Source: Patescibacteria group bacterium (GTDB lineage: Bacteria > Patescibacteriota > Patescibacteriia > UBA9934). From it: a stretch of DNA of 64,000 nucleotides. The translations under genes and the position numbers were made by a program. Location of the stretch: contig JAGORL010000002.1 in the NCBI GenBank assembly GCA_018062825.1, positions 1,629-65,628 of the forward strand. The letters are read 5' to 3'. Position 1 is the stretch's first letter; every line of letters begins with the position of its first letter. Under the pieces are notes generated by a model. That model saw nothing but the letters and a program-made list of their open reading frames with translations, was not told where the DNA came from and searched no databases. Positions 146 through 54,800 of the stretch are shown in pieces.

Positions 146-200
146 GAGAGTCTCCTGAAGTGAAGTGAGGGATCTTGAGGCCCGCATGTCGACATACGAG

Positions 201-308
201 CCAAAACCCCCCACCTCACCTCCGGCCCCAACGTAGTCCGGCTCTGCCGGACGAAGTGGACCTACTCCCTATCCCCTAACCCCTATACCCTATTCCCTAA
301 TCCCTCCC
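201..308 (-). repeat. composite intergenic repeat: conserved hairpin module (227-269) plus C-rich CCCTAA/CCCTAT tract (264-308), G-rich on the sense strand
   Basis: A related copy lies at 38243-38348. The hairpin arm GTCCGGCTCTGCCGGAC differs from GTCCTCAAGGAC in the second copy but keeps its pairing. The 13-mer CCGGCTCTGCCGG recurs at 24594-24606. Confidence 0.6.
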
Positions 309-1074
309 ACATCGCATCAAAGATCATTTCTTGCGTTGACGAAATTGCCTCGTCATCAATCACCGCCCCAAACAACCTGCCATCACTCCCAGCGGAAATG
401 TAGGCCGTCTTCTTGCCGTACATCAGAATGTACGCCGACGAACTTGCACTCGTTGAAAGCCAACGTCGTTCATCAAGGCCATGCTCCGCTCCCCCTGGCC
501 CAATTGCAATCGCCCGTACATGCACCTTGCGTTTTACACGCAAAGCCGTGTAATTCGGCCACGCTTGAGCAATGAGTTCACGAACTTCGGCAGACGAGTA
601 CACGCGATACACGCGCTCAGGCAACAATTCGGCAGTCGAAAGTACATCGTTTAAGATGTCACGAATACCAGCATCGCCTTCGTAGTAGCGCACCGCCGCT
701 CTATGCATCGCAGAGCCGGAAAGTGCTCGCAGCGCCGGAATTGCCGTATCGATCGCTAGTTGCGCCTCTTTAAGCGCCATCTCTTTACGAATGGCGAGTG
801 TACGCAGCTTCTGAGGATCTTCCGCTGTAAAGTACCGATGCGACTTAGCATCAACGTAACTCACCACCCCGGAATCAAGCAGGCGCTTTAAAGCGTCATA
901 CGTCGTACCACGGTTGTAGCCAACCTCCTCAGCGATTCGACGCAGTGGAGCGCTTCCTAGCCGCAACAGGGCAACGTAGATGGCTAAATCCTTCTCAGTT
1001 AAACCAAGAAGGGTTAACGACTGCTTGGAAACTATAGGTGTGGACGACATAGTATGACAAAAATATTCCGACAC
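283..1074 (-). CDS. TrmB-family transcriptional regulator
   Basis: N-terminal winged HTH (LTEKDLAIYVALLRLGSAPLRRIAEEVGYNRGTTYDALKRLLDSGVV) with a C-terminal TrmB-like domain. The last codons GNRV-stop are encoded by the G-rich repeat. Confidence 0.7.
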   Translation of the reverse strand: MSEYFCHTMSSTPIVSKQSLTLLGLTEKDLAIYVALLRLGSAPLRRIAEEVGYNRGTTYDALKRLLDSGVVSYVDAKSHRYFTAEDPQKLRTLAIRKEMALKEAQLAIDTAIPALRALSGSAMHRAAVRYYEGDAGIRDILNDVLSTAELLPERVYRVYSSAEVRELIAQAWPNYTALRVKRKVHVRAIAIGPGGAEHGLDERRWLSTSASSSAYILMYGKKTAYISAGSDGRLFGAVIDDEAISSTQEMIFDAMWEGLGNRV

Positions 1075-1229: not shown

Positions 1230-1303
1230 TCCGAGATCGTCTAACGGCAGGACAGAGGACTCTGAATCCTCTAATCATGGTTCGAATCCATGTCTCGGAA
1301 CCA
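1230..1303 (+). tRNA. tRNA-Gln (anticodon CUG)
   Basis: Manual cloverleaf: acceptor TCCGAGA/TCTCGGA, anticodon stem GAGGA/TCCTC, loop CTCTGAA, T-arm CATGG-TTCGAAT-CCATG, discriminator A, CCA encoded. Confidence 0.85.
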
Positions 1304-1307
1304 AAAT

Positions 1308-1335
1308 AAGACCACCTTCGGGTGGTCTTATTTTG
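1308..1335 (+). terminator. rho-independent terminator (AAGACCACC-TTCG-GGTGGTCTT + ATTTTG)
   Basis: Perfect 9-bp stem with a tetraloop and a U-tract immediately after the tRNA. Confidence 0.8.
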
Positions 1336-1473
1336 TCCTGAGCATGACATCATTCGTCATGCGAAGGACCCGTCACGACCTGTTCCTACAAGACCGGGAC
1401 AGGGGGTGACCAAGAAAACCCTCCTCCCTTCATTGGGTGGCGGGTTTTCGATTTATTGGATAAAATTTAGAAT

Positions 1474-2202
1474 ATGCTCCCAGTTCCGGAAGAATCTCGT
1501 GAAAAAGTCTATTGCCTTGAGGACCCGAGATGGTTTGCACCTATTAATGTCATTTCGCATTACAGTAGCCATCTCGATTCCTTGCCGCGCGAACAGAAGA
1601 AAACCAAAGCTTTTCGTAAAGCATATGAACTGTTTCTTGGTGCGATTATGCTGTTGGGCATTCAAGAAGTAGAGAATGACGTGTACTGGATACAGCCAGT
1701 TTCAGATGAGGAGCAATCTCCAGATGTTCGCACCGGTCGACAAGTACCAGTGAATAACGGTCACGCCCCAGATTTTGAAAGGCAGGATATCGAGGTTGTT
1801 GCATTCATTCCTAAACCTGGCGAGAATCTATCCGAATTTCTTCAACGTACAAAACTGTCTGGAAACAAATCCTACGACTCGAAAACAACCATCTTGTGTC
1901 ACATCCAGACAGGCTCACCCGTTCCGAAAATCACTATTACAGATGAGTTAAGAAAAACAAAAGCTGTTTGCCCGGTTCTTGTATTGGGTCGCACTCACCC
2001 GACGGACCATCAATATCTCTTACTTCAAGTATCCCCAAATTATAAAATTATTGCTCAATACGATGCTAAGGCATTATTGTTAAAACAGGCTCATCAAGGA
2101 TCACTAAACCTTCGGCGAGGTTCAAAACCAGATAATGAGCATCGTCCGAACGATAAGCACTATCCCTTTGAATCCATGGGTTTCACATGTTCTTTGATTT
2201 AG
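1474..2202 (+). CDS. hypothetical protein (AT-rich island)
   Basis: 242-aa ORF in the tRNA-adjacent AT-rich segment; no recognisable motif. Confidence 0.45.
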   Translation: MLPVPEESREKVYCLEDPRWFAPINVISHYSSHLDSLPREQKKTKAFRKAYELFLGAIMLLGIQEVENDVYWIQPVSDEEQSPDVRTGRQVPVNNGHAPDFERQDIEVVAFIPKPGENLSEFLQRTKLSGNKSYDSKTTILCHIQTGSPVPKITITDELRKTKAVCPVLVLGRTHPTDHQYLLLQVSPNYKIIAQYDAKALLLKQAHQGSLNLRRGSKPDNEHRPNDKHYPFESMGFTCSLI

Positions 2203-2215
2203 AAGATAGTACATT

Positions 2216-2956
2216 ATGAGCAATCAACGCCCCAAGATTTCAGACCCCATCCGTCGAAAAATCCGCCAACGTTGCGGCTTTGGTTGTGTATTGTGTGGCT
2301 ACCCTCTCTACGAGTATGACCATATCGAGGGCTGGGCGAATGTTAAGCGGCATCAGGAAGAAGACATCACTCTTTTATGTGTAACGCATCATACTGAGGT
2401 TACTCATAAACTATTGTCACGAGAGGCGGTGAAGGCAGCAAATAAGGATCCATATAATCATCGTCAGGGAGTGAGTAAGCCCTATTTTTTGAATTATGCT
2501 GGGGGCGATCTAGAGACGGAGATTGGTGGAAATATATTTCAGGCCGCAGTCCCGCTCATAATCGAGGATCAACCGATCATCGGATATCAGTCGGATGGAG
2601 AAAACCTCTTACTCTATGTAAAATTATTTGATAAAGACGGAAATCTTGTATTGGACATAGATGCGAACGAGCTCGTTTACTCAATTGACCGGTGGGATAT
2701 AGAGTTGGTTGCTAATCAGCTAACTATACGTGCAGATAAGGGTAAATTCTTAGTTCGAATGCGATTTATCGTGCCTCATAAACTCTACATTGATAGGGGT
2801 ATTATCCAGTATAAAAATCGGTCAGTGTTTATTCAAGATCAGCAGATGACTGTGGATAATGCTGCCATCTTGAGCGGCAGTCGTATTACAGCACCGGTAG
2901 GAATTGCGATTGGTACCTATACGCGTCCGTTCTCATGCGCTATTAGGATCAATTAA
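2216..2956 (+). CDS. HNH endonuclease-domain protein with unknown C-terminal domain
   Basis: N-terminal CGFGCVLCGYPLYEYDHIEGWANVKRHQEEDITLLCVTHHTEV fits the HNH pattern C-x-x-C ... DH ... N ... H-H. The stop TAA is followed by a G-rich tract. Confidence 0.65.
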   Translation: MSNQRPKISDPIRRKIRQRCGFGCVLCGYPLYEYDHIEGWANVKRHQEEDITLLCVTHHTEVTHKLLSREAVKAANKDPYNHRQGVSKPYFLNYAGGDLETEIGGNIFQAAVPLIIEDQPIIGYQSDGENLLLYVKLFDKDGNLVLDIDANELVYSIDRWDIELVANQLTIRADKGKFLVRMRFIVPHKLYIDRGIIQYKNRSVFIQDQQMTVDNAAILSGSRITAPVGIAIGTYTRPFSCAIRIN

Positions 2957-3103
2957 AGGGGGAACAGGGTTTAGGGGCATATAGAAAGGGGTCCCAAAGC
3001 CTCCCCAAAGGCTCAGTCCGTGACCGGGCCATAGAAAACAAGATAAAAATCAAAAACTGACTTTTCTTTTGTTCTTATAAGTATATGATATGTTGGAATC
3101 TAT

Positions 3104-3277
3104 ATGAAAAAATGTATTAAATGCGGACATGCTGAGATGCACACATCAGAACCAATCAGAATTCAAATCAACAGTGAATCAAATCCTTCAAAATTCTTAG
3201 ATATCAATAGATGCAATACTGAAGACTGTGAATGCATTTTAACGCTACAAGAAAAAAGAGACCTCGAAATTGATTAG
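3104..3277 (+). CDS. small zinc-ribbon protein (57 aa), hypothetical
   Basis: MKKCIKCGHAEMHTSEPIRIQINSESNPSKFLDINRCNTEDCECILTLQEKRDLEID, found by manual translation; it is below the ORF-track length cutoff. Confidence 0.3.
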   Translation: MKKCIKCGHAEMHTSEPIRIQINSESNPSKFLDINRCNTEDCECILTLQEKRDLEID

Positions 3278-3307
3278 GAAAATTTACTAAAATCACAACT
3301 AATATAT

Positions 3308-3709
3308 ATGGGATTCTGGATGAACTTTAGAAAAAAAATGTTATGCGAAACATTTTTTTCATCCTACTGCTCAAGAAAGGCTCACTACCCGATGGAAGAC
3401 GAAAATCAATGGTTGAAAGCAGCTATTGAGGAAATATTAACAGATTTTGTTAATCATGATCTCAAAATGATGCCTGAGTTGCTAAATCAAAATGCAGAAT
3501 CAATTTTAAGTCGGATAAAAAACACAGACCCTTACCGACAGGCAATAATTGAACTCTGGAGTTCCTATAAATTTAGTAAACAAATAAGTAAAAATGACTT
3601 TAGTCAAATGTTTAATAACTTTTACGAAAGCGAAAAAGAAATCGAACCACATTACTCAAAGGCCTATATTAAGTATAAAAATAAATTCCCTAAACTGATT
3701 AACTCTTAA
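3308..3709 (+). CDS. hypothetical protein (AT-rich island)
   Basis: 133-aa ORF. The true start may be the internal Met (MEDENQ...). Confidence 0.4.
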   Translation: MGFWMNFRKKMLCETFFSSYCSRKAHYPMEDENQWLKAAIEEILTDFVNHDLKMMPELLNQNAESILSRIKNTDPYRQAIIELWSSYKFSKQISKNDFSQMFNNFYESEKEIEPHYSKAYIKYKNKFPKLINS

Positions 3710-3763
3710 AGTATTGCATTGATCTCTCAGCAGCATGCAATGTAAAGAGGCAACATGCACAAG

Positions 3764-3779
3764 CCCCCCCCTTTTTTTT
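3764..3779. repeat. adjacent homopolymers C8 then T8 between convergent genes
   Basis: AAGCCCCCCCCTTTTTTTTA read directly. Confidence 0.9.
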
Positions 3780-3780
3780 A

Positions 3781-4329
3781 TCACATCTCCTCCCTCTTAA
3801 TCTTATCAACGAGCGCATCAGGCTCAAGGCGAACCTTGAACGAGTCACTCAACAAAGTGTCATACGTGGTGTGATGTGGTCGGACGGTTTTCTCAAGAGC
3901 AACTCCCTGCCCTTCTAGCTGCAAAGCAAAATCATCAAGTGAACCAGTTAGCGGATAGATCTCGATATGATCAAAACCACTGACCTGGCTGCCATCAGGC
4001 TTTTGATCGGACAATTCTAAGTACCAAATATCACCGAGCTCCGTCGCAATTGGAGTCGTAAATTTAACGATCGCAATACGGCGCGCTGAAATGATCGACT
4101 GATACACAAAATCACTGTGGTAATCAAAGAAAGCTCGCAGCTCTTCATACTCTTCCTGACTCCCACACTTATAACAGATATGGTCGGCGCGAGCGGCTGG
4201 CTGAGTTTTCGCTACCCAGGCATTGAAGAGATCAAGCTCTTTCTGGGCGGCTAAAAAGAATTCGTTGAGATTTTTATACATACAAGGCTCAAAGCACCAT
4301 AGCATGAGGTAAAAACAATGAGTACTCAA
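3781..4329 (-). CDS. hypothetical protein
   Basis: 182-aa ORF. Segments FDHIEIYPLTGSLDD / GQGVAL faintly resemble a VOC/glyoxalase-like fold, with low confidence. The true start is probably an internal Met. Confidence 0.45.
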   Translation of the reverse strand: MSTHCFYLMLWCFEPCMYKNLNEFFLAAQKELDLFNAWVAKTQPAARADHICYKCGSQEEYEELRAFFDYHSDFVYQSIISARRIAIVKFTTPIATELGDIWYLELSDQKPDGSQVSGFDHIEIYPLTGSLDDFALQLEGQGVALEKTVRPHHTTYDTLLSDSFKVRLEPDALVDKIKREEM

Positions 4330-4397
4330 GCAGTGGAAAAGACCTGTCGTTTACTTGGCGTTTAAGTGCTATATTTTGCACTAAAATAAAACATCCT

Positions 4398-5699
4398 GTG
4401 GCTACCGAACAACCCCCAAAAACCCCAACAAAACCAACGATCAAACTCACGAAAGAACTTCGAGAACTCTTAGAGGTCTTAGAAAACACTTCAGAGAACG
4501 TTTTCCTAAGCGGTAAAGCCGGCACCGGAAAATCAACTTTCTTGAGATACTTTCGATCGATCACCAAAAAGAATGTAGTCGTCCTGGCGCCAACTGGCAT
4601 TGCCGCCGTTGGGATTCAAGGGCAAACAATTCACTCCTTTTTTAAATTTGGCATTGATACCACGCTCAATGATGTGGAGCCGGTTGCAAAAAGCGCTATC
4701 TATAAAAAGATTGATCTCCTGGTTATTGATGAAATCTCCATGGTGCGCTCGGATCTTTTTGATTGCATGGAAAAGTTCATGCGCTTAAATGGCAGAGAGA
4801 AGCACCTCCCCTTTGGTGGCGTGCAGCTACTTGTAATTGGAGACTTACATCAACTGCCACCGGTCGTAAAAAGAAATGGTGAAGAGAACATTTTTACCGA
4901 ACTCTACGAAGGGCCGCATTTCTTTGACGCCATGTCATACCGCAGTGCCGAATTTAAAAAGATGGAACTTACCCACGTTTTTCGTCAAAATCAAAAACAC
5001 TTCATCGAGGCGCTTGATGCGATTCGGATCAACAAGTACACCGCCAAGCACCTAAAGCTCATTAACGATCGAGTAGCTAAAAATAACGATCACGAGCTTG
5101 ATTTCACTATCTCAATTGTTACTACCAACAAAACCGCGGATGAGATCAACAAGAAAAAACTAGAAAGTTTGAGTACCAAAAAGAAGGTGTACAAAGGCGC
5201 TATTCAAGGCAAGTTCAAAGAAACACTCCCAACCGATGAAAGCCTTGAACTCAAATGCGGTTCGCAAGTCATGCTCATTAAAAACGACCCAGAGGGCCGC
5301 TTTGTAAATGGCGATATCGGTAAAGTGAAATCACTGACCGATAGTGAAGTAGAGGTTATTTTCGAAAGCGGCAAGTGCGTGAGCGTGAGTTCAGAAACCT
5401 GGAACAATATCAATTTCAAACTTGATTCCGCCAAAAGAAAGATTGAAACCGAAACCGTCGGATCATTCACACAAATTCCGATCAAACTCGCCTGGGCGAT
5501 CACCATTCACAAAGCTCAGGGCAAAACCTTTGATAAAGTACATATTGATATGGGCCGCGGCGCCTTTGATTCAGGGCAGACATACGTTGCTCTGAGTCGA
5601 GCACGAACACTCGAAGGTATAACATTAAAGCAACCAATTTATCCGAGAGATATTTATACAAATTCTAGAGTCGATGCTTTTATGAGCAATGACCGTTAG
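4398..5699 (+). CDS. Pif1/RecD-family ATP-dependent DNA helicase
   Basis: Walker A LSGKAGTGKST, FGGVQLLVIGDLHQLPPV, AITIHKAQGKTFDKV, YVALSRAR. Confidence 0.8.
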   Translation: MATEQPPKTPTKPTIKLTKELRELLEVLENTSENVFLSGKAGTGKSTFLRYFRSITKKNVVVLAPTGIAAVGIQGQTIHSFFKFGIDTTLNDVEPVAKSAIYKKIDLLVIDEISMVRSDLFDCMEKFMRLNGREKHLPFGGVQLLVIGDLHQLPPVVKRNGEENIFTELYEGPHFFDAMSYRSAEFKKMELTHVFRQNQKHFIEALDAIRINKYTAKHLKLINDRVAKNNDHELDFTISIVTTNKTADEINKKKLESLSTKKKVYKGAIQGKFKETLPTDESLELKCGSQVMLIKNDPEGRFVNGDIGKVKSLTDSEVEVIFESGKCVSVSSETWNNINFKLDSAKRKIETETVGSFTQIPIKLAWAITIHKAQGKTFDKVHIDMGRGAFDSGQTYVALSRARTLEGITLKQPIYPRDIYTNSRVDAFMSNDR

Positions 5700-6333
5700 C
5701 ACTATGGAAAAATCATACGGAAATATTGCCGCCGCTCTTATCTTCAACGGCGCCATGGTCGCACTTTTCATGCAAGCACTCTTAAGGCCAGAGGCTAATG
5801 CCGAATGGATCTTTCGAGGAGCATTTCTCATCTTCATCTTTGAGTTCTTAGCGATCTTTGCCCAACTCTGGCCTATTAAGCTCGTAGATGAATGGAAAAA
5901 GTCTGATGCTATTAAGAAAACCGGCGTCGTAGTGCAGGGCGTTATTATCTCCCTCTTTATTCTTGGCTTCACCTTTGGCTTTAGTTACCTTGCAGGCAAC
6001 GTAGCCGCCGGTGGCTACTTTGTGATCTCAATGATCGCTAAGTACGTAAGTCATGCAAAAAACGGCATGGACATGAAAGCGACCTATGCCGGTATTTTAA
6101 TCTTCATGGGAACTCTCATGGCAGTCTCGTTCACCTCCCCGGTGTGGCCAGCCATCTTTCCGTTCCCAGAGTCGGTACTCGCACAAAAAATCGACGGTTC
6201 AAGCGGTATGTTTGTCGATGCCCCGCAAGTGCAACTTGTCTGGGGAGCCCTCTACTTCCTCGGTCTCACGATGTACGAACTTAAGAAACCCATCATCGAC
6301 GCCTGGTTTACGAAGTATCAAGTAAAGAAGTAA
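5689..6333 (+). CDS. hypothetical multi-pass membrane protein
   Basis: Several hydrophobic segments. It overlaps the end of the helicase gene, so the two are probably co-transcribed; the start may be at 5704. Confidence 0.5.
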   Translation: MTVSTMEKSYGNIAAALIFNGAMVALFMQALLRPEANAEWIFRGAFLIFIFEFLAIFAQLWPIKLVDEWKKSDAIKKTGVVVQGVIISLFILGFTFGFSYLAGNVAAGGYFVISMIAKYVSHAKNGMDMKATYAGILIFMGTLMAVSFTSPVWPAIFPFPESVLAQKIDGSSGMFVDAPQVQLVWGALYFLGLTMYELKKPIIDAWFTKYQVKK

Positions 6334-8048: not shown

Positions 8049-8103
8049 ATGGAAGGAGTGTAAAACATACGGCGGAATGGCGGAAGGGTAAAGGTGGGAA
8101 GGT

Positions 8104-8460
8104 TTAATGCTTGAAAATCTTTGAATAGCTAGCGATCATGCGTGATAATTTTCGTGAATCATCGAGGCCTTTAGTAAAAGTATCCTGAGAAAAATAACCC
8201 AAATCAAAACCTGCATAAAATAACGAACGAACTTCACCACACGAACCTTTTGCAATCAGTAAATAATTAGCCATGGTTTTAGTTGAATGCGATTCATGAC
8301 CTTCCGCTATATTGTTCATCACCGACAAAGAAGCACGACGCATTTGAGAACGAAAATCACGATCAATGACACTTTTTGTAGAGGAATAAACAAAAGTAAC
8401 AAGCTGCCTAGCCTCTTGCCAGATACGCAAATCTTCGAATGTCTTATATGCCTTATCCAT
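8104..8460 (-). CDS. four-helix-bundle protein (23S rRNA intervening-sequence protein family; Avd-like)
   Basis: 118 aa; RIWQEARQLVTFVY ... MNNIAEGHE ... GSCGEVRSL is characteristic of the TIGR02436-type family. Confidence 0.8.
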   Translation of the reverse strand: MDKAYKTFEDLRIWQEARQLVTFVYSSTKSVIDRDFRSQMRRASLSVMNNIAEGHESHSTKTMANYLLIAKGSCGEVRSLFYAGFDLGYFSQDTFTKGLDDSRKLSRMIASYSKIFKH

Positions 8461-8470
8461 ATCACTAACG

Positions 8471-8547
8471 ACCCCTTCTTGCCCTCCACCTTCACCCCTC
8501 CTCCCTTCACCCTTCCGCCCTTCCTCCTTTCCACCCTTCCGCCCCCA
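8471..8547 (-). repeat. G-rich (sense-strand) purine repeat tract, GGCGGAAGGG / GGAAAGG units
   Basis: Minus strand reads GGGGGCGGAAGGGTGGAAAGGAGGAAGGGCGGAAGGGTGAAGGGAGGAGGGGTGAAGG. It starts at the TAG stop of the upstream ATPase gene. Confidence 0.6.
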
Positions 8548-11088
8548 CTACCCCATCGGCGGCTTCACCGGTGGAGCCACTGGACGTGCCTTGTTCATAC
8601 CCGAACGCTCCATAATGTCTCGCTCTACGATCGATTTATCCTGACCGTACTGCAAACGAGAGATCTCCTTAAGAGCATCACCAACCCGGCGGTTACCTTT
8701 CTCAATCGGAATCGCCTTCATGGTAAACGGCTTAGCCTGGGCGTTCTCAATGATCATCTTCACGTTCCAGGTGTACATGTCGGTATTCATGAGGTCATAG
8801 CCGCTAAAAGTTGGAGCAAACACCTTCTCGAGTGTTTCAACATCTTCCGGACCAACACGCGCCACAAACATGTTTCCAACGTTACCCAAAACTGCATCAC
8901 GGATCTCACTCTTCCCATCTTTCACAAGCTGACCCATGTACTGGTGCGCCAAAATCATGTTCAAACGATACTTACGCGCCTCAGACAAAATCGTGGCAAT
9001 ACTTGGGGTAATAAAGTTCTGGAACTCGTCGATATACAGGTAAAAGTCATGGCGTTCACTCTCTGGAATATCAGCACGTGAAAAGGCTGCCATCTGCAAC
9101 TTAGCCACAAGAATCAAACCAAGAAGCGAAGCATTCACTTCACCGGTCTTACCCTTAGAAAGATTAACGAGCAAAATCTGCTTCTTATCCATGATTTCAC
9201 GGAAATTGAAAGCACTCTTTTGCTGACCAATAATGTTACGCATCATCTCGTTCTCCACGAAGCGACCAACCTTAGAAACCAAGTAACCCATCATTTCACT
9301 CTTATGGTAGTCGCTCGTTTTAGCCATCTCATCCTCCCAGAACGATCGAACAACCGGATCCTTTACCTTGGAAACCCATTCCTTCTGGAAAGCTTCATCA
9401 GCAATCATGCGTGGAATTTCTACAATCGTTCCTGGATTCTGCACATCAGCCATCAAGGTCAACATGTAGTTACGCATGTTGTGTTCAAACATCGGACCGA
9501 TCATTTCCGGTGGGAACAACATGTAGAAAATGCTAATCATTTCCTGCACCACGAAATCGCGCATCTCATCATTTGGTGATTCAAGCATGTTCAAACCCAT
9601 CGGACGCTCAAGGTCTGACGGATTGAAGTAAACAACGTCATCAATACGATTCTTTGGAATGAGCTCAAGAACGCCGTCAGCCAAATCTCCGTGCGGATCA
9701 ATAATACAAACACCTTTGCCGTTTCGAATATCCTGTACGGCCATGTTCTTAATAAACTCCGATTTACCGGAACCCGTTTTACCAATGATGTACATGTGAC
9801 GTCGGCGGTCACTATCTGTCATGTGAATATCAGTACGCACACCCCGATACTCGTTATAACCAACGAGGAGCCCTTCTTTAGGAATGTTTGTTGGAGCAGG
9901 CTGAGTACGCGCAAGCATCCAGCGAATGTTTGGTGTTTCAGTACTAGCAAGCGGCAAGTGCCACAAACTCGCTAACTCTTCAGTGTTAGCGATCAAACGG
10001 TGGCTGTCATCAAACAAGCGGAAAATAAACTCATCAATAATCTTACGCTTAGTGCGAGGAATGCTCTTTTCAAACGAATTGCCGTATTCGTAAATACTGT
10101 ACTGAGAAAAAGCCTGCAAAACGTTACCAAGATACGCTTGAGCCATGTCTGCGGTCTGCGCGGAAGCAACAATGCGAATATTCACCTCAAGCGCTGCCTT
10201 AGTCATCTTGTTCTCAATGCCCTCAAGCATCTTTGTTTCAGCAGCAGACAACCGGCGCTCTCGGCGTTTTGCAGCCTGCTTCTCAATATCTTCCTTAGAA
10301 GACATCCAGCCAGCTTTGGTAGCCCCCGTTTTCGCCTCCTCAAGTGTCATGCCCGCCTGCATGTTGCGCACGATCTTTGAACCAAATGCTCGCCAATCAC
10401 TTGCGGCCGGACGCACCAAAAACTGCACCGCTACGCCATCGGTCTCAAGCACTTTTGATAGTGCATTAGTAAGCGCGTTAACCGGATCACCCTCAATCTC
10501 TTTAAAGGTTTTAATCGGGAAAGCATTTTCACGCTTAAACTTCACGTGACCAGCCACGGTAACGCCGGTTGGTGAAAAAATATTGTAATCAACGATCTCC
10601 TCAAGGTAGGCATCGCTCCATTGTGCATGAAGTTGCTGTTCAAAAAATTCCTGATGCTTCTTCGGAACCGTAACGTAAAACGTAACCAACTTCTCATGTG
10701 CAACAAGTTCAAAAGCAAAAACATCATTCCTGCCTTTAAGCCAAGCATTAAAACCCTTCTCAGGCTTCAAGCCGCCAATCGCGGCATAGAGCGTTTCTGC
10801 AATAGCGATCTTCTCTTTAATAGTTGCCGGCGTATCATTTTGCCGCGCCTCGTCCTGATTTTTATAACGAGGAATAGTCACACGCAACGTCACCTGGGCA
10901 TTCTCACCACCTTTAGCACGCGCCGAACGCATAGCCCGAGCTCGCCAATAGAAAACAAAACCAACCAAGCATCCGACCACCGCCAAAACCGCAGCTAGGA
11001 AAAGAAAAAGGAGCGCTATTGGATCAAGACCAGCGCCGACCGTTGTTTCAAGATCCGTTCCTCCAAGGATTTGCAACATAATCACCAT
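8548..11088 (-). CDS. membrane-anchored FtsK/HerA/TraD(VirD4)-superfamily P-loop ATPase (DUF87/TraG-D_C-like)
   Basis: N-terminal TM segment; Walker A YIIGKTGSGKSEF; Walker B FYLYIDEFQNF; RKYRLNMILAHQYMGQL ... VLGNVGN motif typical of TrwB/TraD coupling-protein ATPases. Confidence 0.7.
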   Translation of the reverse strand: MVIMLQILGGTDLETTVGAGLDPIALLFLFLAAVLAVVGCLVGFVFYWRARAMRSARAKGGENAQVTLRVTIPRYKNQDEARQNDTPATIKEKIAIAETLYAAIGGLKPEKGFNAWLKGRNDVFAFELVAHEKLVTFYVTVPKKHQEFFEQQLHAQWSDAYLEEIVDYNIFSPTGVTVAGHVKFKRENAFPIKTFKEIEGDPVNALTNALSKVLETDGVAVQFLVRPAASDWRAFGSKIVRNMQAGMTLEEAKTGATKAGWMSSKEDIEKQAAKRRERRLSAAETKMLEGIENKMTKAALEVNIRIVASAQTADMAQAYLGNVLQAFSQYSIYEYGNSFEKSIPRTKRKIIDEFIFRLFDDSHRLIANTEELASLWHLPLASTETPNIRWMLARTQPAPTNIPKEGLLVGYNEYRGVRTDIHMTDSDRRRHMYIIGKTGSGKSEFIKNMAVQDIRNGKGVCIIDPHGDLADGVLELIPKNRIDDVVYFNPSDLERPMGLNMLESPNDEMRDFVVQEMISIFYMLFPPEMIGPMFEHNMRNYMLTLMADVQNPGTIVEIPRMIADEAFQKEWVSKVKDPVVRSFWEDEMAKTSDYHKSEMMGYLVSKVGRFVENEMMRNIIGQQKSAFNFREIMDKKQILLVNLSKGKTGEVNASLLGLILVAKLQMAAFSRADIPESERHDFYLYIDEFQNFITPSIATILSEARKYRLNMILAHQYMGQLVKDGKSEIRDAVLGNVGNMFVARVGPEDVETLEKVFAPTFSGYDLMNTDMYTWNVKMIIENAQAKPFTMKAIPIEKGNRRVGDALKEISRLQYGQDKSIVERDIMERSGMNKARPVAPPVKPPMG

Positions 11089-11579
11089 TATTCACGTACT
11101 TTGAGCACGCTATCTGTAATAATTTTTGCCTCTTGCGTCAAAAACTCCCGAGTCACCTTTGGAACAAGCTTGAGCCAACCTTCAACAAGATCAAGAACGG
11201 TGCCTTCAGAAAGACGACCGCTGGCAATCATGGCGCGAATCTTCACCGCGATCTCTTCCCCGCGCTTTCGAAAAGCTGGCTTAACGCCATCCGGGATCTG
11301 AACGTAGAGATTTTTCAAGCGAGCAGACAAGGCCTCCTCAACATGCGAGAGGAGTTCATCTTTTGCTCGTGGTACTTCTCGTGCTGCCTGAAGCGCCGCG
11401 GCACGTGCCTCGGAAACCGCTGCTGGATCTGCCTCCATCTGCACCGGAGCCTGTTCGGGAGCAGCTATCTCAGGGGAGTATTCCGCCTGCGGAATCTCCC
11501 GCTCTGACACAGTAGTCAAATCTAAAACCTCCGCGCCAAGCAGATTTGGGGCTTCACCCGTCGTCTCACGATCGCTCAT
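11088..11579 (-). CDS. hypothetical protein (acidic N-terminus, helical C-terminus), translationally coupled to the ATPase
   Basis: Stop overlaps the ATPase start (ATGA). An extended -10 (TGTTACAAT) lies upstream. Confidence 0.5.
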   Translation of the reverse strand: MSDRETTGEAPNLLGAEVLDLTTVSEREIPQAEYSPEIAAPEQAPVQMEADPAAVSEARAAALQAAREVPRAKDELLSHVEEALSARLKNLYVQIPDGVKPAFRKRGEEIAVKIRAMIASGRLSEGTVLDLVEGWLKLVPKVTREFLTQEAKIITDSVLKVRE

Positions 11580-11600
11580 ATAGGCATATTGTAACAGATA

Positions 11601-11634: not shown

Positions 11635-11649
11635 TTCTCACACTATCCC

Positions 11650-13038
11650 CTATACCCTATTCCCTTCCTTCACCCTCTGCCCCTCAGCTGTATCCTCAAC
11701 CACAAACCCAAGTTCGGCAATTGCATCACGCAATCTATCTGAAGCTGAAAAATCTTTGTTAGATCGAGCGGCGGCACGTTCATCAAGTAGTGCCTGCACA
11801 CTTGGCGGCACAAGTACCGGTCGCGCGACCACGTCATCAAGCGTCAAACCAAGCACTTCATCAAAAGCCAAAAGAGTAGCGGCTTTAGTCGAACTAACAA
11901 CATTTGCGTCACTAACAAGCTCCCACAAGACCGCCAAAGCCCCTGGCGTATCAAGGTCATCGCTAACGCGTGCCATAAAGCGATCAACGTACCCAGTATC
12001 AGGAGTACTTGGCTTTTCAAGCGTACGAGCAAGATCGATCAAGCGATTTAGTGCTTGATGAGAAGCGCCAAGCGCTTCAAACGTAAAGTTCTGCGGGGTT
12101 CGGTAATGCGCCTGCAAAATAAAGTAACGGAAATCGAACGGGGAAAAACCCTTAGCTTCAAGATCATCAAGAGAGTACGTATTTCCAAGCGATTTACTCA
12201 TCTTGCCGCCATCAACCAGTAAAAACTCATTGTGCATCCAAAGGTTTGCCTCCAAAACTCCACGAGCACCAAGGGTTTGCGCCAACTCATTCTCATGATG
12301 CACCGCAATGTGATCAATGCCACCCGTATGAATATCAAAAGGAACGCCTAAATACTTCTCCCCCATGGCTGAACACTCAATATGCCAACCCGGAAAACCC
12401 TTACCCCATGGCGACTCCCACTCCATATGACGCTTCTCGCCAGCCGGTGAAAACTTCCACAAGGCAAAGTCAGCGGCACTACGCTTACCATCGGTCTCAA
12501 CACGAGCTCCCCCTTCTTTCTCCTCCATCTTCTGCCCAGAAAGCTGGCCGTACTCCGGCAGCTTGGCAACATCAAAATAAATGCCGTCATCCGTGCGGTA
12601 CGTAAAACCATTCTTCTGAAGCTCTTCAACCATGGCAATCTGCTCAGCAATATGATCAGTAGCCTTAGGAATAACGGTTGGCATCAGATTGTTCACTCGA
12701 CGAATATCGGCAAGAAAAAGTTTAGTGTATTCGTCAGCAATATCCCACGCCGTTTTACCCTTCTTCTTGGAAGCAACCTCAAGCTTATCCTCGCCGCTTG
12801 ATGCGTCATCAGTTAAATGACCAACATCCGTAATATTCATGACCGCCGTCACCGCAAAACCATTCTTTTCTAGTGTACGTCGTAAAAGGTCAGCAAAAAT
12901 AAATGATCGCAAATTTCCGATGGAAGCTCGATCGTAAACCGTTGGTCCACAAGAATACATTCCGACCTTGCCCGGTACCTGAGGAGTAAAAATCTCTTTT
13001 TTGCGACCAAGGGTATTGAAAAATGCGATGACATGCAT
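11650..13038 (-). CDS. cysS: cysteine--tRNA ligase
   Basis: YSCGPTVYD, HIGH-like and KMSKS motifs. Start set at the internal Met (MHVIAFFNTLGRKKEIF). The C-terminal GNRV-stop is encoded by the G-rich repeat. Confidence 0.85.
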   Translation of the reverse strand: MHVIAFFNTLGRKKEIFTPQVPGKVGMYSCGPTVYDRASIGNLRSFIFADLLRRTLEKNGFAVTAVMNITDVGHLTDDASSGEDKLEVASKKKGKTAWDIADEYTKLFLADIRRVNNLMPTVIPKATDHIAEQIAMVEELQKNGFTYRTDDGIYFDVAKLPEYGQLSGQKMEEKEGGARVETDGKRSAADFALWKFSPAGEKRHMEWESPWGKGFPGWHIECSAMGEKYLGVPFDIHTGGIDHIAVHHENELAQTLGARGVLEANLWMHNEFLLVDGGKMSKSLGNTYSLDDLEAKGFSPFDFRYFILQAHYRTPQNFTFEALGASHQALNRLIDLARTLEKPSTPDTGYVDRFMARVSDDLDTPGALAVLWELVSDANVVSSTKAATLLAFDEVLGLTLDDVVARPVLVPPSVQALLDERAAARSNKDFSASDRLRDAIAELGFVVEDTAEGQRVKEGNRV

Positions 13039-15578: not shown

Positions 15579-15803
15579 TTATTCATCAGCCTCACCGGCA
15601 CCACAATCTTCACAGTCGTCACAACAACGATCAGTATCAGACTCTTCATCGCAACAATCACAACTTTCACCACAGCTCACCTTTCCGCCATTCCCCCCTT
15701 CCGCCATTCCGCCTTTCTTCACAGGCATAGCGCAAACGCCATCATGACAGGTGGCCTTTGGTGCTTCTTTCTTTGCCCCAAACACTGACGAAAGCCATGA
15801 CAT
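15579..15803 (-). CDS. Cys/Asp-rich microprotein (74 aa), hypothetical
   Basis: [74 protein letters not shown]. It lies 5 nt upstream of dnaJ. The middle part is encoded by a GGCGGAAGGG-type repeat. Confidence 0.45.
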
Positions 15804-24457: not shown

Positions 24458-24565
24458 AACAATGCAGCAAGTATAACAAGAATTTTCGATGCACCGCGTG
24501 ATAATGAACAATCACCTCCGAGCTTTGACGGCACAAAAAAGCTCTGCTATTCTATCGTTCGTCAG

Positions 24566-24871
24566 AAATACGGCCTTATCGTCTAGCGGCTATCCGGCAA
24601 AGCCGGACCCGGCTCTGCCGGGGGACGTCATATGTACATCGTCTATATACTTTCGTCCGAAAGCAATAATCGCTGGTACATTGGAATGACTGCAGACATT
24701 AAGGTTCGTTTAGGTGAACACAATGCAGGTCGCGTGCGCTCCACAAAGCCATATGTTCCGTATCGCATTATTTATACGGAAACATATCCAGACAAAACAA
24801 CTGCGCGGAAAAGAGAGATTCAGATTAAAAAATCTGGATTAATCCGCAAGCAGTTAAAAGACAGGATTACC
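24566..24871 (+). mobile_element. 306-bp GIY-YIG mini-element inserted at the 5' end of tRNA-Glu, bounded by 26-bp direct repeats (24566-24591 and 24872-24897)
   Basis: The repeat AATACGGCCTTATCGTCTAGCGGCTA covers the first 21 nt of the tRNA. Two tandem hairpins (TCCGGCAAAGCCGGA, CCCGGCTCTGCCGGG) precede the ORF. Confidence 0.45.
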
Positions 24872-29312: not shown

Positions 29313-29449
29313 AAGTATTTCAAGTACGACAACAAGTATACAAACCTAATGTTTTACGCAAGCCCGGCTTGTCCACAGCGGAACAAAAGGCGCAGATTAA
29401 AGAGTTTGGAGTATAAAGGAAAGTGAAGATAATGAATAGGTGGCCAAGC

Positions 29450-29482
29450 GTTAATAAATGGCCAAAATGAAAAGGGGCTGCG
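29450..29482 (-). terminator. terminator of nrdA (imperfect GGGTGCTGTGG ... CCGCAGCCCC stem + UUUUCAUUUU)
   Basis: Preceded on the minus strand by an A-rich TTAAAG repeat tract (29483-29530). Confidence 0.55.
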
Positions 29483-29544
29483 GAATATGCCACAGCACCC
29501 TCTTTCTTTAACACTTTTAACTTTAATACTTTAACCCAACAATC

Positions 29545-31452
29545 CTACTGACAAACCGCACACTCTTCCGTGGAGACATCTCGCTTCTGAGATTCCATAG
29601 AGATGCTGTCAGCTTGGATTGGCGCTGAAGAGCGGAAGTAGTAAAGAGACTTCAGACCAAGCTTCCAAGCAAGCAAGTGAACCTCATGCATGTACTTTCC
29701 AGAAACCGGCGTCTGGAAGAAGAGGTTAAGCGACTGCGCTTGATCAATATACGGCTGACGATCAGCAGCTTGCTGAACAAGTTCGCGCATGTTCATCTCG
29801 TAACCGGTACGGAAGATCGCCTTTTCCTCTACAGTAAGGAATTCCAAATTCATAACACTGCCCTTATCAGCGATCACCTTTTTCCAAACATCGGAAGTAT
29901 TCTGTCCCTTTGTTTCCAAGAATGCTTCCAGGTGACGATTCTTTACAAGGAAGCTACCAGAAAGTGTCTTTTGCAAGTACGCATTTCCAGCAATTGGCTC
30001 AATAGCTGGCGTTGCCTCACCACACAAGAACGCTGTTGAAGCCGTTGGCTGAATAGAAGTGACGTAGCTATTACGCTGCGTACCGCCATCAAGCGGCAAA
30101 CCACGCTCTTCACCAAGCTTCACACTTGCCTTGCGCGCTGCCTCACCAAACTTAGTAAAGATTGCCTTGTTAATGTTGCGTGCTTGCAAACTCTCAAATG
30201 GCACACCCTTACTCATGAGGTAACCGTGATAACCCATGGTACCAAAACCGATGGAGCGTTCGCTCTTCACCGAGAAGATCGCTTTTTTGTACTCCTTCGG
30301 ATCAGCCATGTCGAGGAAGGTCTCGAGGTTGTTATCAAGACCCTTTACCGCTGCATAACAAATGTCATCGATCTGATCAGAAAACTCATCCCAACGCTCA
30401 AGGTTGATAGAAGCCAAGCAGCACACTGCCGTACGATCGTTATCGGTTGGCAAAACAATCTCCGTACACAAATTAGACTGACGAACCTGCAAACCTTTCT
30501 CTTTGTGATGCGGAGGAATGAACTTATTTACTGTATCAATGAACAAAAGATACGGCTCACCACTTTCAGCGCGCATGGAAAGAATCTTGCGCCACATGGT
30601 AACGGCATCAAGCTCCTTGGTGACCTTCTTGAAGTGTGGATCGATCAATTGGTACGTAGTGCCCTTCTCAACCGCTTCCATGAAGGCATCCGTAATAGTG
30701 ATACCAATGTTGATATTCAAAGTCTTACGATCTTGATCGCCACCGGTTGGCTTACGAACTTCCAAGAAGTCCTCAATATCTGGGTGATCAATACGCAAGT
30801 AGGCCGCTGCCGCACCACGACGAACACCATTACGAGCAATCGCGATCGTTTCCGAATCCATGATCTTCAAAAACGGAATAACGCCGGAAGACTTCAAGCC
30901 GGAAGAGATAAGCGGCGCATCCATACCGCGCAACTGCGACCAATCAGTACCGATACCACCACCGTACTTAGCAAGAAAAGCATTCTCACGGAAAACATCA
31001 AAGATACCACCAAGATCGTCTGGAACGGTGTTCAGGAAGCATGAAATCGGCAAACCCTTCTTGGTACCAATGTTCATGAGTGTTGGCGATGACGGCAAGA
31101 ACCAGTTCTTACTCATGATGTCATACAGGTACTGGGCATGCTGCTTGTCACCACGCGCCATACCGATCGCAATGCGCGCAAAAAACATCTGCGGATCCTC
31201 AATCACCTGACCAGCAACGTTACGCAAGGCATAACGATCACGGAAGTTCTCAAGGCCAAAGTAGGTAAAGTTGGTATTACGCTCTGGGGCAAGAACCAAA
31301 GACTGCTGAGCCTCTTTGTATTCCTGCATGTAATACTCAGAATCCCAACTGCCTTTGCCAGCTGTGCTCGCTAAAATTTCACCAAGTAAGATATTGCGCG
31401 CCGCCAAGAGATCGTTAGCACTCAAAGCGTCGATAACTGATGCGTAATCCAT
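29545..31452 (-). CDS. nrdA: ribonucleoside-diphosphate reductase alpha subunit (class I)
   Basis: Large-subunit core with a C-terminal CAVCQ redox pair. Confidence 0.9.
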   Translation of the reverse strand: MDYASVIDALSANDLLAARNILLGEILASTAGKGSWDSEYYMQEYKEAQQSLVLAPERNTNFTYFGLENFRDRYALRNVAGQVIEDPQMFFARIAIGMARGDKQHAQYLYDIMSKNWFLPSSPTLMNIGTKKGLPISCFLNTVPDDLGGIFDVFRENAFLAKYGGGIGTDWSQLRGMDAPLISSGLKSSGVIPFLKIMDSETIAIARNGVRRGAAAAYLRIDHPDIEDFLEVRKPTGGDQDRKTLNINIGITITDAFMEAVEKGTTYQLIDPHFKKVTKELDAVTMWRKILSMRAESGEPYLLFIDTVNKFIPPHHKEKGLQVRQSNLCTEIVLPTDNDRTAVCCLASINLERWDEFSDQIDDICYAAVKGLDNNLETFLDMADPKEYKKAIFSVKSERSIGFGTMGYHGYLMSKGVPFESLQARNINKAIFTKFGEAARKASVKLGEERGLPLDGGTQRNSYVTSIQPTASTAFLCGEATPAIEPIAGNAYLQKTLSGSFLVKNRHLEAFLETKGQNTSDVWKKVIADKGSVMNLEFLTVEEKAIFRTGYEMNMRELVQQAADRQPYIDQAQSLNLFFQTPVSGKYMHEVHLLAWKLGLKSLYYFRSSAPIQADSISMESQKRDVSTEECAVCQ

Positions 31453-31503
31453 AGCAGATGTACTCCTCTTTAATCTTTTAACTTTAATCTTTGCTCTGAA
31501 ACC
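31453..31503 (-). repeat. A-rich GATTAAAG repeat spacer between nrdB and nrdA, ending in RBS AGGAG
   Basis: Minus strand reads AAGATTAAAGTTAAAAGATTAAAGAGGAGTACATCTGCT-ATG. Confidence 0.5.
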
Positions 31504-38242: not shown

Positions 38243-38348
38243 AAACTCCCAACTCACCAGCCCCAACGTAGTCCTCAAGGACGAAGTGGAGCTACTCCCA
38301 ACTCTTAACTCTTAACTTTAATCTTTTCACTTTACTCTTTAATCTCCA
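38243..38348 (-). repeat. composite intergenic repeat, copy B: A-rich GATTAAAG/GTTAAGAG tract + conserved hairpin module (38261-38299)
   Basis: Minus strand reads GGAGATTAAAGAGTAAAGTGAAAAGATTAAAGTTAAGAGTTAAGAGTTGGGAGTAGCTCCACTTCGTCCTTGAGGACTACGTTGGGGCTGGTGAG. An inverted partial copy lies at 38162-38197. Confidence 0.6.
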
Positions 38349-54732: not shown

Positions 54733-54800
54733 AAACAACCACTTATACACATCTAATGCCGCCCCTTCCCCCTTTCCGCCTTTCCACCTACACTCTCCAC

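Follow-up and report, generated by a model that had tools for sequence, protein, structure and literature searches.

The window (the whole stretch of Patescibacteria DNA that we analysed, 64 kb) contains a cytosine-free heptamer array, hereafter A1, at a contig-internal position between a TrmB-like and a DUF218 gene (Table 1). The string GGGAGGGATTAGGGAATAGGGTATAGGGGTTAGGGGATAGGGAGTAGG, quoted in the original prediction, is an exact match to positions 261-308 of the minus strand, and TRF reports a period of 7 and 6.4 copies there (261-305). Its units are GGGAATA, GGGTATA, GGGGTTA, GGGGATA and GGGAGTA, giving the consensus TAGGGNN, and the array contains two copies of TTAGGG. The TrmB-like ORF (283-1074, minus strand) has its TAG stop at 283-285, within A1, which also encodes the last residues of the protein (..EGLGNRV*). 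On the C-free strand each of the three frames contains two stop codons, and on the complementary strand the frames contain 0, 2 and 0. The focal locus 261-308 itself holds no ORF, hence no PF05635/S23p gene. A lookup of the 263-aa TrmB-like ORF, which has a GTG start, matched no record; a record of the same protein (P0001) is 255 aa long, consistent with an annotated start further downstream.

Two hairpins lie 3' of A1. The proximal one is conserved, with a second copy elsewhere in the window, and the distal one is an "empty" purine-arm/pyrimidine-arm pair that overlaps the annotated DUF218 start. The region 140-320 folds with z = -4.7. An Rfam scan of the whole window at the gathering threshold returned two tRNAs only, and lenient Rfam scans around both copies of the conserved hairpin gave no score close to any gathering threshold. 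A C-rich complementary partner for A1 was sought nearby and none was found, A1 being a solo array. The sole nearby plus-strand G-rich tract (2957-2991) was rejected as a partner because oppositely oriented genes intervene; it reads better as a second solo array at the 3' end of another gene.

We found A1 to be identical in one independent assembly (L015), with no insertion/empty-site polymorphism at this array. The class B array is unchanged in L014, and an A8G8 tract of the window is unchanged in L014, L015 and L016. As they recur in independent assemblies, these tracts are not an assembly artefact.

Cytosine-poor arrays at gene boundaries

The window has about a dozen arrays (~13) with a period of 7-8 nt. 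An additional 8.7 kb of the contig (L017) was also covered and contained no further strong arrays. One class-B-like repeat (15680-15721) was left out of the count, being internal to a Cys-rich 74-aa ORF. The hairpins that follow the arrays were missed by a consensus terminator scanner, as their loops are above its limit, and folds were used instead.

Table 1. Arrays, hairpins and the PF05635 gene in the window (positions in nt; strand in brackets).
Feature	Position	Strand	Description	Basis or remark
A1	261-308	(-)	(TAGGGNN) x ~6.5, no C; focal array	Sequence read directly, TRF, fold
Conserved two-part hairpin	224-262	(-)	TCCACTTCGTCC-loop-GGACTACGTTGGGGC, directly 3' of A1	Second copy at 38259-38292
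Long hairpin	157-223	(-)	~30 bp; 5' arm G-rich (GGAGGTGAGGTGGGGGG..), 3' arm C-rich (..CCCTCACTTCACTTC)	
A2	11637-11683	(-)	Shares GGGAATAGGGTATAGGGG with A1; gives CysS its GNRV* (stop 11650-11652)	Period 7, 3.3 copies at 11643-11665 (TRF); intrinsic-terminator-like hairpin follows
B1	8472-8554	(-)	GGCGGAAG/GGTGAAGG octamers; 5' purine arm of PF05635 cassette	Begins at TAG stop (8548-8550) of T4CP-like ATPase gene
PF05635 gene	8104-8460	(-)	23S rRNA intervening-sequence protein / four-helix bundle, between B1 and B1'	PF05635 match, E = 2.6e-27
B1'	8071-8103	(+)	G-rich on plus strand, i.e. pyrimidine 3' arm on sense strand	Pairs with B1 across PF05635 gene
C1	29498-29547	(-)	GTTAAAG type, no C; begins at nrdA TAG stop	5' arm of long hairpin around a terminator-like stem-loop
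C1'	29394-29443	(+)	Inverted partner of C1; pyrimidine 3' arm on sense strand	Region 29385-29550 folds with z = -4.5
C2	31461-31492	(-)	AAAGATTAAAGTTAAAAGATTAAAG, between nrdB and nrdA	
C3	38292-38351	(-)	GATTAAAG/AGTTAAG, no C; begins at UDP-glucose dehydrogenase TAG stop	Downstream: conserved-hairpin copy (38259-38292), then terminator
C4	41380-41424	(+)	Inverted orientation; 12-mer GGAGATTAAAGA in common with C3, 3 kb away	Purine-rich on antisense strand
HNH tract	2957-2991	(+)	Short G-rich tract directly past TAA of 246-aa "HNH" ORF	Predicted ordinary hairpin with downstream C-rich segment, not G4
DUF192 array	56309-56333	(+)	Heptamers TAGGGGG TAGGAAG TAAAAAG TAGG; contains DUF192 TAG stop	Mixes G-rich and A-rich units; terminator next
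mraZ array	54701-54788	(-)	88-nt G-rich array upstream of mraZ, divergent intergenic region	At no gene's 3' end

Strand and position bias, computed within the window, was borne out, with C-free runs at gene boundaries above expectation. Runs of at least 45 nt numbered five on the minus strand (0.25-0.32 expected) and two on the plus strand (~0.01 expected). All seven lie at gene boundaries, though 91.6% of the window is coding, and five of the seven hold a sense-strand stop codon. A sense-strand stop is abutted or contained by eight arrays, and TAG is the stop in 6/8 of the array-abutted genes versus 16/53 of the others (Fisher one-sided p=0.021). Thus the placement of G-rich sense-strand tracts with an embedded TAG at gene ends, as originally claimed, is real, apart from two exceptions, the antisense array C4 and the array upstream of mraZ. 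The feature that the arrays have in common is, however, the 7-8 nt period together with a strand having little or no cytosine, not the G-runs. None of the stop codons (TAA, TAG, TGA) contains C, and the period shifts the frame from unit to unit, so that an ORF running into an array meets a stop after a few codons; the embedding of TAG in G-runs follows from the same two properties. The arrays lie past stop codons and ahead of terminator-like hairpins, a position that suggests the 3' UTR.

The effect of the arrays on protein ends is visible from orthologues. The window CysS ends in ...EGQRVKEGNRV*, whereas CysS orthologues without the array (L003, L004, L006) end in ...EG(Q/T)(K/R)(V/I)(K/R)(E/K) plus 1-3 residues. 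Similarly, the TrmB-like protein ends in ...WEGLGNRV* and its array-less orthologues (P0002-P0040; loci L140-L142) in ...WESLG*. The two proteins are unrelated, and have the GNRV* tail in common because both gain their ends from arrays; the arrays concerned, A1 and A2, carry identical strings of 18-22 nt at distant loci. For annotation, this means that arrays replace native stops and append short spurious tails such as GNRV*, and that N-termini called on the complementary strand are lengthened. Two other repeats were excluded as arrays, since the GAGGRGGTA repeats of L002 encode the GrpE N-terminus and the segment 11539-11578 of L003 encodes an acidic protein.

Paired arrays and PF05635 cassettes

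Three sites in the window have paired arms, namely 8472-8554/8071-8103, 29498-29547/29394-29443 and the hairpin at 157-223. The first of these encloses the PF05635 gene and constitutes a cassette (8071-8554) located between the T4CP-like ATPase gene and dnaX; a scan of the whole window found no rRNA. Its arms are 37 nt long and 78% complementary, and the MFE and centroid structures alike show long-range pairing across the gene. In duplex energy the arms beat composition-matched shuffles, though weakly (z = -2.2). When arm complementarity was compared with shuffles for eight cassettes, it was clear in six, weak in the seventh (that of the window), and failed in L146. In the relative L003, the region 8275-8440 folds with z = -7.1.

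A scan of metagenomes for TAGGG arrays revealed TAGGGNN arrays on more than 100 contigs. At three of the loci found in this way, L032 (between carA and carB), L085 and L138, inverted arrays surround a PF05635 gene. Convergent pairs, in which a G-array precedes a C-array, are common and were observed at L028, L029, L030, L047, L064, L087 and L117. We also sampled PF05635 homologues, and 5/5 had the same architecture (Uhrbacteria, Paceibacterota, Levybacteria, Methylacidiphilales and one further contig) in what is a small sample of close sequence relatives. All PF05635 genes examined, forming nine cassettes from hosts of 35%-62% GC, lie between a purine array and a complementary pyrimidine array, and each cassette fills exactly the intergenic gap between housekeeping genes. 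In low-GC genomes the arms are made of A/T-rich units. We consider the PF05635 association to be the most interesting lead, as, if general, it would join two orphan phenomena, the heptamer SSRs and the PF05635/IVS elements, and would lead to the hypothesis of selfish stem cassettes that reside in operons and are processed by RNase III.

We propose that 261-308 is a solo member of a family of strand-asymmetric 7-8 nt arrays that would occupy gene gaps in this Patescibacteria (Uhrbacteria-like) genome. The C-free strand closes each of the reading frames after one to three units; an array can be retained nowhere but at an ORF's end or immediately beyond it, where the native stop is readily overwritten, and such overwriting matches the GNRV* tails of CysS and the TrmB-like protein. 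In pairs, the purine-rich 5' arm folds with its pyrimidine-rich 3' complement into a long stem that is empty, or encloses a terminator or a PF05635 four-helix-bundle gene, with the 5' arm beginning at the stop codon of the upstream gene and the 3' arm finishing at the start codon of the next. The window and metagenomic pairs show that paired arrays are arms of IVS-like stem elements, and solo arrays may be such arms as well. Solo G-rich copies, 261-308 among them, would sit in the 3' UTR, with a hairpin or terminator further downstream. By analogy with the IVS of 23S rRNA, the stems may be RNase III substrates that would cut polycistronic RNA. Shared unit type and placement are the bases on which we infer that A1 is tied to the paired cassettes. 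For the account as a whole, in which C-free 7-8 nt arrays are dispersed and their paired copies are IVS-like stem arms, we estimate a probability of about 0.6.

Alternatively, the arrays could be plain SSRs that arose independently by local replication slippage and were kept where they are harmless, at gene ends, having no function and no relation to PF05635/IVS. Bacterial heptamer SSRs are over-represented, with slippage as a proposed cause (PMC4692102, PMC4679880). The unit sequences in our window vary from locus to locus, the arrays are unconserved at orthologous sites, and the three-frame-stop filter accounts by itself for the placement. Independent origin, however, does not lead one to expect long identical strings at distant loci (18-22 nt in A1/A2 and the 12-mer common to C3/C4), the recurrence of convergent pairs that are complementary and led by the purine arm, or the flanking of all the examined PF05635 genes by such arms. 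We therefore regard slippage alone as unlikely.

G-quadruplex potential and other proposed roles

The original prediction listed seven genes ending in, or directly followed by, G-quadruplex (G4)-type tracts, and proposed that the motif recurs specifically at stop codons and serves the mRNA 3' end as a stability element, a termination or ribosome-release signal, or a protein-binding site. We found G4 potential at three loci only. The canonical motif (G3+N1-7 x4) occurs just twice on both strands of the 64 kb, at 267-308 and 8495-8520, and in a G4-aware fold the minimum-energy structure includes a three-tier RNA G4 for the TrmB-like, CysS and T4CP tracts only. Each of these three tracts (261-308, 11637-11683 and 8472-8554) has four or more G3 runs, and it is at these loci that G4Hunter-type scores of 1.9 or higher cluster. 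G4 prediction was thus positive for these and negative for the rest of the tracts. The TrmB-like, CysS and T4CP ATPase genes accordingly stand as G4-capable examples and the other four do not. The HNH and DUF192 arrays are short or degenerate, the latter with one G-run of at least three only. The dnaJ tract (AAGGAGGGATAGGG) has two G-runs only and that of the 3781 gene is an A8G8 homopolymer pair, neither being an array.

Positions at stop codons are likewise held by A-rich arrays of the same period that are incapable of forming G4 (29498-29547, 31461-31492 and 38292-38351), and the same conserved hairpin follows one G-rich array (A1) and one A-rich array (C3). Specific recurrence of the G4 motif at stop codons is therefore not supported. 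The identical behaviour of the A-rich arrays and the mixture of G-rich and A-rich units within one array (56309-56333) argue against G4 as a selected property, and its formation would instead follow incidentally from the G-rich composition of one array variant.

Selection of the G-runs as functional RNA G4s at mRNA 3' ends has in its favour the three G4-capable loci with their predicted three-tier structures and clustered scores, and the fact that related repeats form G4 in vitro, four units being preferred (PMC4692102). Yet such capability extends to only 3/7 of the cited cases and 3/~13 of the arrays. Arrays are missing from the orthologous gene ends of relatives, the arms of PF05635 cassettes turn to A/T-rich units in low-GC genomes, and the Xanthomonas and Nostoc repeats have been described with no regulatory role found (PMC4692102). 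We consider this reading quite improbable, and the G4-based RNA role is unsupported by our data. The other possibility raised at the outset, that a G-rich repeat at gene ends supplies new stops, fits much better, given the GNRV* tails and the array-less orthologues; as to a mobile repeat, we identified no mobility enzyme. G4 formation in vitro is probable for solo G-rich arrays like 261-308, judging from their Xanthomonas and Nostoc counterparts. The window also encodes a Pif1-like helicase (4398-5699), a possible G4 link, in a strain-variable low-GC island; nothing ties this helicase to the arrays.

The arrays may also be envisaged as tandem sites at which a factor binds RNA or DNA. The candidates are a post-transcriptional regulator (S1/CSP/CsrA-like) with the purine strand as its target, and Rho, loading at C-rich, G-poor sites on antisense transcripts. 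The regular 7-8 nt spacing, the strand asymmetry and the intergenic placement are compatible with this, comparable proposals exist for TAACTGA repeats (PMC4679880), and the complements of the arrays are C-rich, G-free and, as far as likeness goes, rut-like. But units as varied as TAGGGNN, GGCGGAAG and GATTAAAG are too diverse for one sequence-specific binder, and the window yielded no candidate factor, which makes such sites highly improbable. Polar DNA signals of the KOPS/Chi type were rejected, as the two solo arrays past plus-strand genes follow transcription and not the replication strand and paired arms occur on both strands, and a telomere repeat was rejected on the period of 7, the variable spacers and the contig-internal position.

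Relation to known repeats and intervening sequences

The account of dispersed C-free arrays with IVS-like paired forms can be set against several described systems. The closest are the G-rich heptamers GGGAATC of Xanthomonas and GGGGA(C/T)T of Nostoc (Rehm et al. 2015, PLoS One; PMC4692102). These are strongly intergenic, lie on the sense strand within 50 bp of stop codons and frequently form convergent inverted pairs (70/186 in X. campestris); they are transcribed, form G4 in vitro by CD spectroscopy, and are not conserved in length between close species (PMC4692102). Stop-proximal sense-strand G-rich heptamers have hence been known since 2015, and the window extends the class to the candidate phyla radiation. 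The window arrays resemble this class in being tandem heptamers with a G3-4 tract (the unit GGGAATA is one base off GGGAATC), in their over-representation in non-coding DNA and in the convergent inverted pairs seen in the window and metagenomes, the focal array itself being solo. They differ in that the consensus TAGGGNN is neither GGGNATC nor GGGGA(C/T)T and represents a sequence variant. The host here is a Patescibacteria MAG in which G-rich and A-rich arrays coexist with the same period and placement, and the arrays flank PF05635 genes, of which the paper of Rehm et al. makes no mention; G4 formation in the window is computed only.

Telomeres of eukaryotes, (TTAGGG)n/(TTTAGGG)n, have the TTAGGG string in common with A1, whereas A1 lacks a fixed unit and is internal, between two genes; telomere-like contigs in our metagenome scan formed a separate population with many long arrays. 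Short tandemly repeated repetitive (STRR) heptanucleotides, known from heterocystous cyanobacteria, where their main use has been the fingerprinting of strains, are tandem, dispersed and intergenic. On its G-rich strand STRR1 is GGGGACT, which is the Nostoc repeat of Rehm et al.

TAACTGA direct repeats of 2-6 or more units are intergenic in Beggiatoaceae, Cyanobacteria and Bacteroidetes (MacGregor 2015; PMC4679880). Their forward strand has stops in all three frames and so overlaps only with the very end of an ORF, and mobility was considered possible with no known mechanism (PMC4679880). They share with the window arrays the intergenic heptamers and the three-frame-stop argument, but are mostly just upstream of starts, contain C, consist of one fixed heptamer and almost never occur as inverted pairs.

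For the paired form, the relevant comparison is the IVS element of 23S rRNA with an S23p/PF05635 ORF, known from Leptospira and Coxiella and regarded as selfish (PMC4990558). In Coxiella, the S23p ORF is accompanied by terminal inverted repeats that are cut by RNase III and by purine-rich heptamers of variable copy number (PMC4990558). The window cassette similarly has a PF05635 ORF, an inverted-repeat stem and purine-rich repeats upstream. In contrast to the 23S IVS, the cassettes of the window and of L032, L143, L144 and L148 lie between protein-coding genes and not in 23S helix 25/45, and their arms are themselves repeat arrays. More broadly, and tentatively, at a little short of even odds, the Xanthomonas GGGAATC repeats, the Nostoc/STRR-type repeats, the metagenomic TAGGGNN arrays and the G- and A-rich arrays of this genome may all be arms, whether still paired or orphaned, of a single pan-bacterial IVS-like family. 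Such a family would carry PF05635 in its complete form, insert precisely from stop to start with an arm composition that tracks host GC, and be excised by RNase III from mRNAs as from 23S rRNA. If true, a pan-bacterial cassette family would provide a common explanation for PF05635 proteins and for these long-unexplained repeats.

Composition and placement of the arrays

The 48-nt string quoted in the original prediction matches positions 261–308 of the minus strand exactly. It is a heptamer array of 6.4 copies (TRF), and the TAG stop codon of the TrmB-like ORF (PF01978) lies within it at 283–285. The array is identical in L015, an independent assembly from the same population, and is therefore not an assembly artefact. 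G-run repeats had been claimed at the ends of at least seven genes, of which seven were named. True multi-unit G-rich arrays were observed at the TrmB-like, CysS and T4CP-like ATPase (FtsK/TraD-like) genes, while the DUF192, dnaJ and 3781 examples are not of this kind and the tract 3' of the 246-aa ORF has a long loop (see the table). The A8G8 pair immediately follows the stop codon (TGA) of the YecM-like gene, in a gap towards which the genes on both sides converge. It could be slippage-prone; it is unchanged in three other assemblies, with no length variation seen across them.

Repeat arrays and hairpins in the window
Feature	Position	Strand	Description
TrmB-like tract	261–308	-	true multi-unit G-rich array
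CysS tract	11637–11683	-	true multi-unit G-rich array
T4CP-like ATPase tract	8472–8554	-	true multi-unit G-rich array
Tract 3' of 246-aa ORF	2957–2991		four G-runs, one loop of 10 nt; predicted pairing with downstream C-rich segment
DUF192 tract			heptamer array TAGGGGG TAGGAAG TAAAAAG TAGG; single G-run of three or more
dnaJ example			nothing beyond GGGATAGGG
3781 example	3764–3783		A8G8 homopolymer pair
A-rich array	29498–29547		after nrdA
A-rich array	31461–31492		between nrdB and nrdA
A-rich array	38292–38351	-	after UDP-glucose dehydrogenase gene
G-rich array, 88 nt	54701–54788		upstream of mraZ, divergent region
Antisense array	41380–41424	+	A-rich
Purine-arm/pyrimidine-arm hairpin without ORF	29385–29550		encloses terminator-like stem-loop; z = -4.5
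Purine-arm/pyrimidine-arm hairpin without ORF	157–223	-	adjoins focal array; z = -4.7 for 140–320

Upon searching both strands of the 64 kb, (G3+N1-7)x4 matches were found at only two loci, both on the minus strand, and a G4-aware ViennaRNA fold placed a three-tier G-quadruplex in the minimum-energy structure of three tracts only. A-rich arrays occupy equivalent stop-abutting positions and, like the G-rich ones, have a period of 7–8 nt and are devoid of C. G-quadruplex formation as the selected function is therefore not supported; the common denominator of the arrays is not G-runs.

The window (GC ~49%; homologues annotated as Patescibacteria or Candidatus Uhrbacteria) has a strong, uniform GC skew, so its minus strand, which carries nearly all the genes, is G-rich. 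For all arrays we used a composition-neutral statistic, runs without C on one strand. Five such runs of ≥45 nt occur on the minus strand (0.25–0.32 expected) and two on the plus strand (about 0.01 expected). Coding sequence makes up 91.6% of the window, yet all seven fall at gene boundaries, and five contain a sense-strand stop codon. The stop is TAG in 6 of the 8 array-abutted genes compared to 16 of 53 other genes (p=0.021). The predicted recurrence at stop codons thus holds, with two exceptions, the array upstream of mraZ and the antisense array. About 73 kb of DNA of this genome was covered.

The focal array has two stop codons in each of the three frames. As stop codons all lack C and a period of 7 or 8 rotates the frame, a C-free strand closes every frame quickly. 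This closure alone explains the TAG inside G-runs, and allows an array to survive only at ORF ends. The same argument was made earlier by MacGregor for TAACTGA repeats (PMC4679880).

Several neighbouring features were also observed. For the MraY/WecA-like gene, translation from the annotated start (54756) yields a 15-residue N-terminus that is read from the C-rich strand opposite the array upstream of mraZ; the real start looks like the ATG at 54801 (MPTWWPLVVLGG...). The arrays after the UDP-glucose dehydrogenase gene and at 41380 are inverted, have the 12-mer GGAGATTAAAGA in common and flank a 3-kb block in which three genes share one orientation (malic enzyme, RskA-like protein, UDP-glucose dehydrogenase). 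If this block is co-transcribed, pairing of the two arms could produce a 3-kb loop in which, contrary to the usual order, the pyrimidine arm comes first. Between dnaK and dnaJ, a 74-aa Cys- and Asp/Glu-rich ORF (15579–15803, minus strand) without a Pfam match carries in frame the repeat GGCGGAATGGCGGAAGGGGGGAATGGCGGAAAGG, similar to the octamer type (class B). A low-GC island (~1300–6300; 40–43% against about 50%) adjoins tRNA-Gln (1230–1303) and holds unannotated ORFs, the YecM-like gene and a Pif1-like helicase (4398–5699, plus strand). Gene content 3' of the 246-aa ORF varies among same-population assemblies, L014 being like the window and L015 and L016 having other small ORFs.

Gene ends in the window and in orthologues

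CysS orthologues (49–66% identity) end in ...EG(Q/T)(K/R)(V/I)(K/R)(E/K) plus 1–3 residues and have no array downstream of cysS, whereas the window protein ends in ...EGQRVKEGNRV*. Likewise, about 40 TrmB-like orthologues end in ...WESLG* or similar and the window protein in ...WEGLGNRV*; in relatives at 67–70% identity the intergenic DNA is a plain hairpin without an array. The additional tails are array-encoded. By these comparisons, the arrays are recent and have overwritten gene ends. The TrmB-like and CysS arrays have GGGAATAGGGTATAGGGG in common, with one unit of difference, which favours a shared origin over independent slippage. The alternative originally offered, a mobile repeat supplying new stops at gene ends, is consistent with the tails and with the absence of arrays from orthologues; no insertion/empty-site pair was seen, as the closest relatives are only at about 70% protein identity.

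Two other loci carry what appear to be different intergenic repeat families in the array niche: repeated ACTGACA..CAGTTATCCACCTGAC units after cysS in the relative L006 (about 11370–11600), and in L028 (940–1070) a payload between TAGGG arms with GC-rich palindromic motifs (..CCCTTCGAC..GGCTCAGGGTGAGG..).

Paired arrays and PF05635 genes

The T4CP-like ATPase array forms an inverted pair, in which it is the upstream arm, with an array at 8071–8103 that is just past a gene (8104–8460, minus strand) for a PF05635 protein (23S rRNA intervening-sequence protein, S23p). Pairing of the arms across this gene is predicted in the MFE structure and again in the centroid structure. Two hairpins of purine and pyrimidine arms without an ORF are also present, and a relative has the equivalent design (L003 8275–8440, z = -7.1). 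The hairpin at 157–223, of about 30 bp, spans the annotated ATG (186) and first codons of the DUF218 gene. The DUF218 protein is annotated with 208 aa and has 185–186 aa in relatives; translation probably begins further downstream, close to the GTG at about 146, and the hairpin would then be intergenic.

A hairpin in two parts, TCCACTTCGTCC-loop-GGACTACGTTGGGGC, is conserved directly 3' of both the G-rich focal array (224–262) and an A-rich array (38259–38292), both on the minus strand, and is present nowhere else in the window. It has no Rfam match, and its single further occurrence among 142 loci is the same-strain copy in L015. The inner stems of the two copies differ (GTCCGGC/GCCGGAC vs GTCC/GGAC) and the internal-loop bases are identical. 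The 13-mer CCGGCAGAGCCGG, the inner stem-loop of the focal copy, recurs upstream of an Na+/H+ exchanger gene (24512–24631, minus strand), adjoining a second GC-rich hairpin.

A metagenome scan for TAGGGDVTAGGGDVTAGGG matched at least 120 contigs (GC 0.30–0.72). Among the matches listed, once telomere-like satellite contigs were left out, many are short arrays adjoining ORF ends; in 49 of 104 cases an ORF of ≥100 aa on the same strand terminates within or at the array. At least nine are convergent pairs in which the G-array precedes the C-array, and three of the listed matches have a PF05635 gene beside or between arrays. In L032, carA with its TAG inside a GGGGCTAGGG array is followed by a PF05635 ORF and a CCCTAGCCCC array, and carB starts immediately.

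We also sampled five PF05635 homologues directly, picked on taxon and contig size with flanks unseen beforehand. All five are flanked by a purine array poor in C on one side and a pyrimidine array complementary to it on the other. The stop codon of the preceding gene falls within or right at the first unit, and in three of the five (L143, L146, L148) the downstream arm runs up to the ATG of the following gene. Arm composition tracks host GC: the units are ATTAAAA and TTATAAAG where host GC is low, and GGAAGGAG in other hosts. Complementarity of the arms clearly exceeded composition-preserving shuffles in 6 of 8 cassettes; it was weak for the window cassette (z = -2.2) and did not reach significance for L146. 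Paired arms accompany PF05635 genes in nine cassettes, a small sample. A PF05635 gene is immediately upstream of dnaX both in the window (T4CP-PF05635-dnaX) and in the Paceibacterota contig L148 (argS-PF05635-dnaX, 701–1045), which could be a common ancient insertion or a preferred site.

Solo arrays such as the focal one may be orphan or independent arms of this paired-cassette family. Paired arms would be RNase III substrates in polycistronic RNA, and the purine-arm-first order may be favoured because ORFs entering from either side would be terminated.

Comparison with known repeats

The repeats described by Rehm et al. (2015) have the unit GGGAATC in Xanthomonas and GGGGA(C/T)T in Nostoc (PMC4692102); the focal unit, GGGAATA, is one base apart from the former. 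The Xanthomonas repeats are 89–93% intergenic, at a mean of 28 nt from the upstream ORF. In that study 70 of 186 repeats were convergent pairs, and the repeats were transcribed and folded into G4 in vitro; the study found no function for them, and PF05635 or IVS elements are not mentioned (PMC4692102). The Coxiella IVS has an S23p ORF, a stem of 28 bp that is formed by terminal repeats and cleaved by RNase III, and variable-number purine-rich tandem heptamers upstream of the ORF (PMC4990558). This is the anatomy of the PF05635 cassettes, but the Coxiella element is inside the 23S rRNA.
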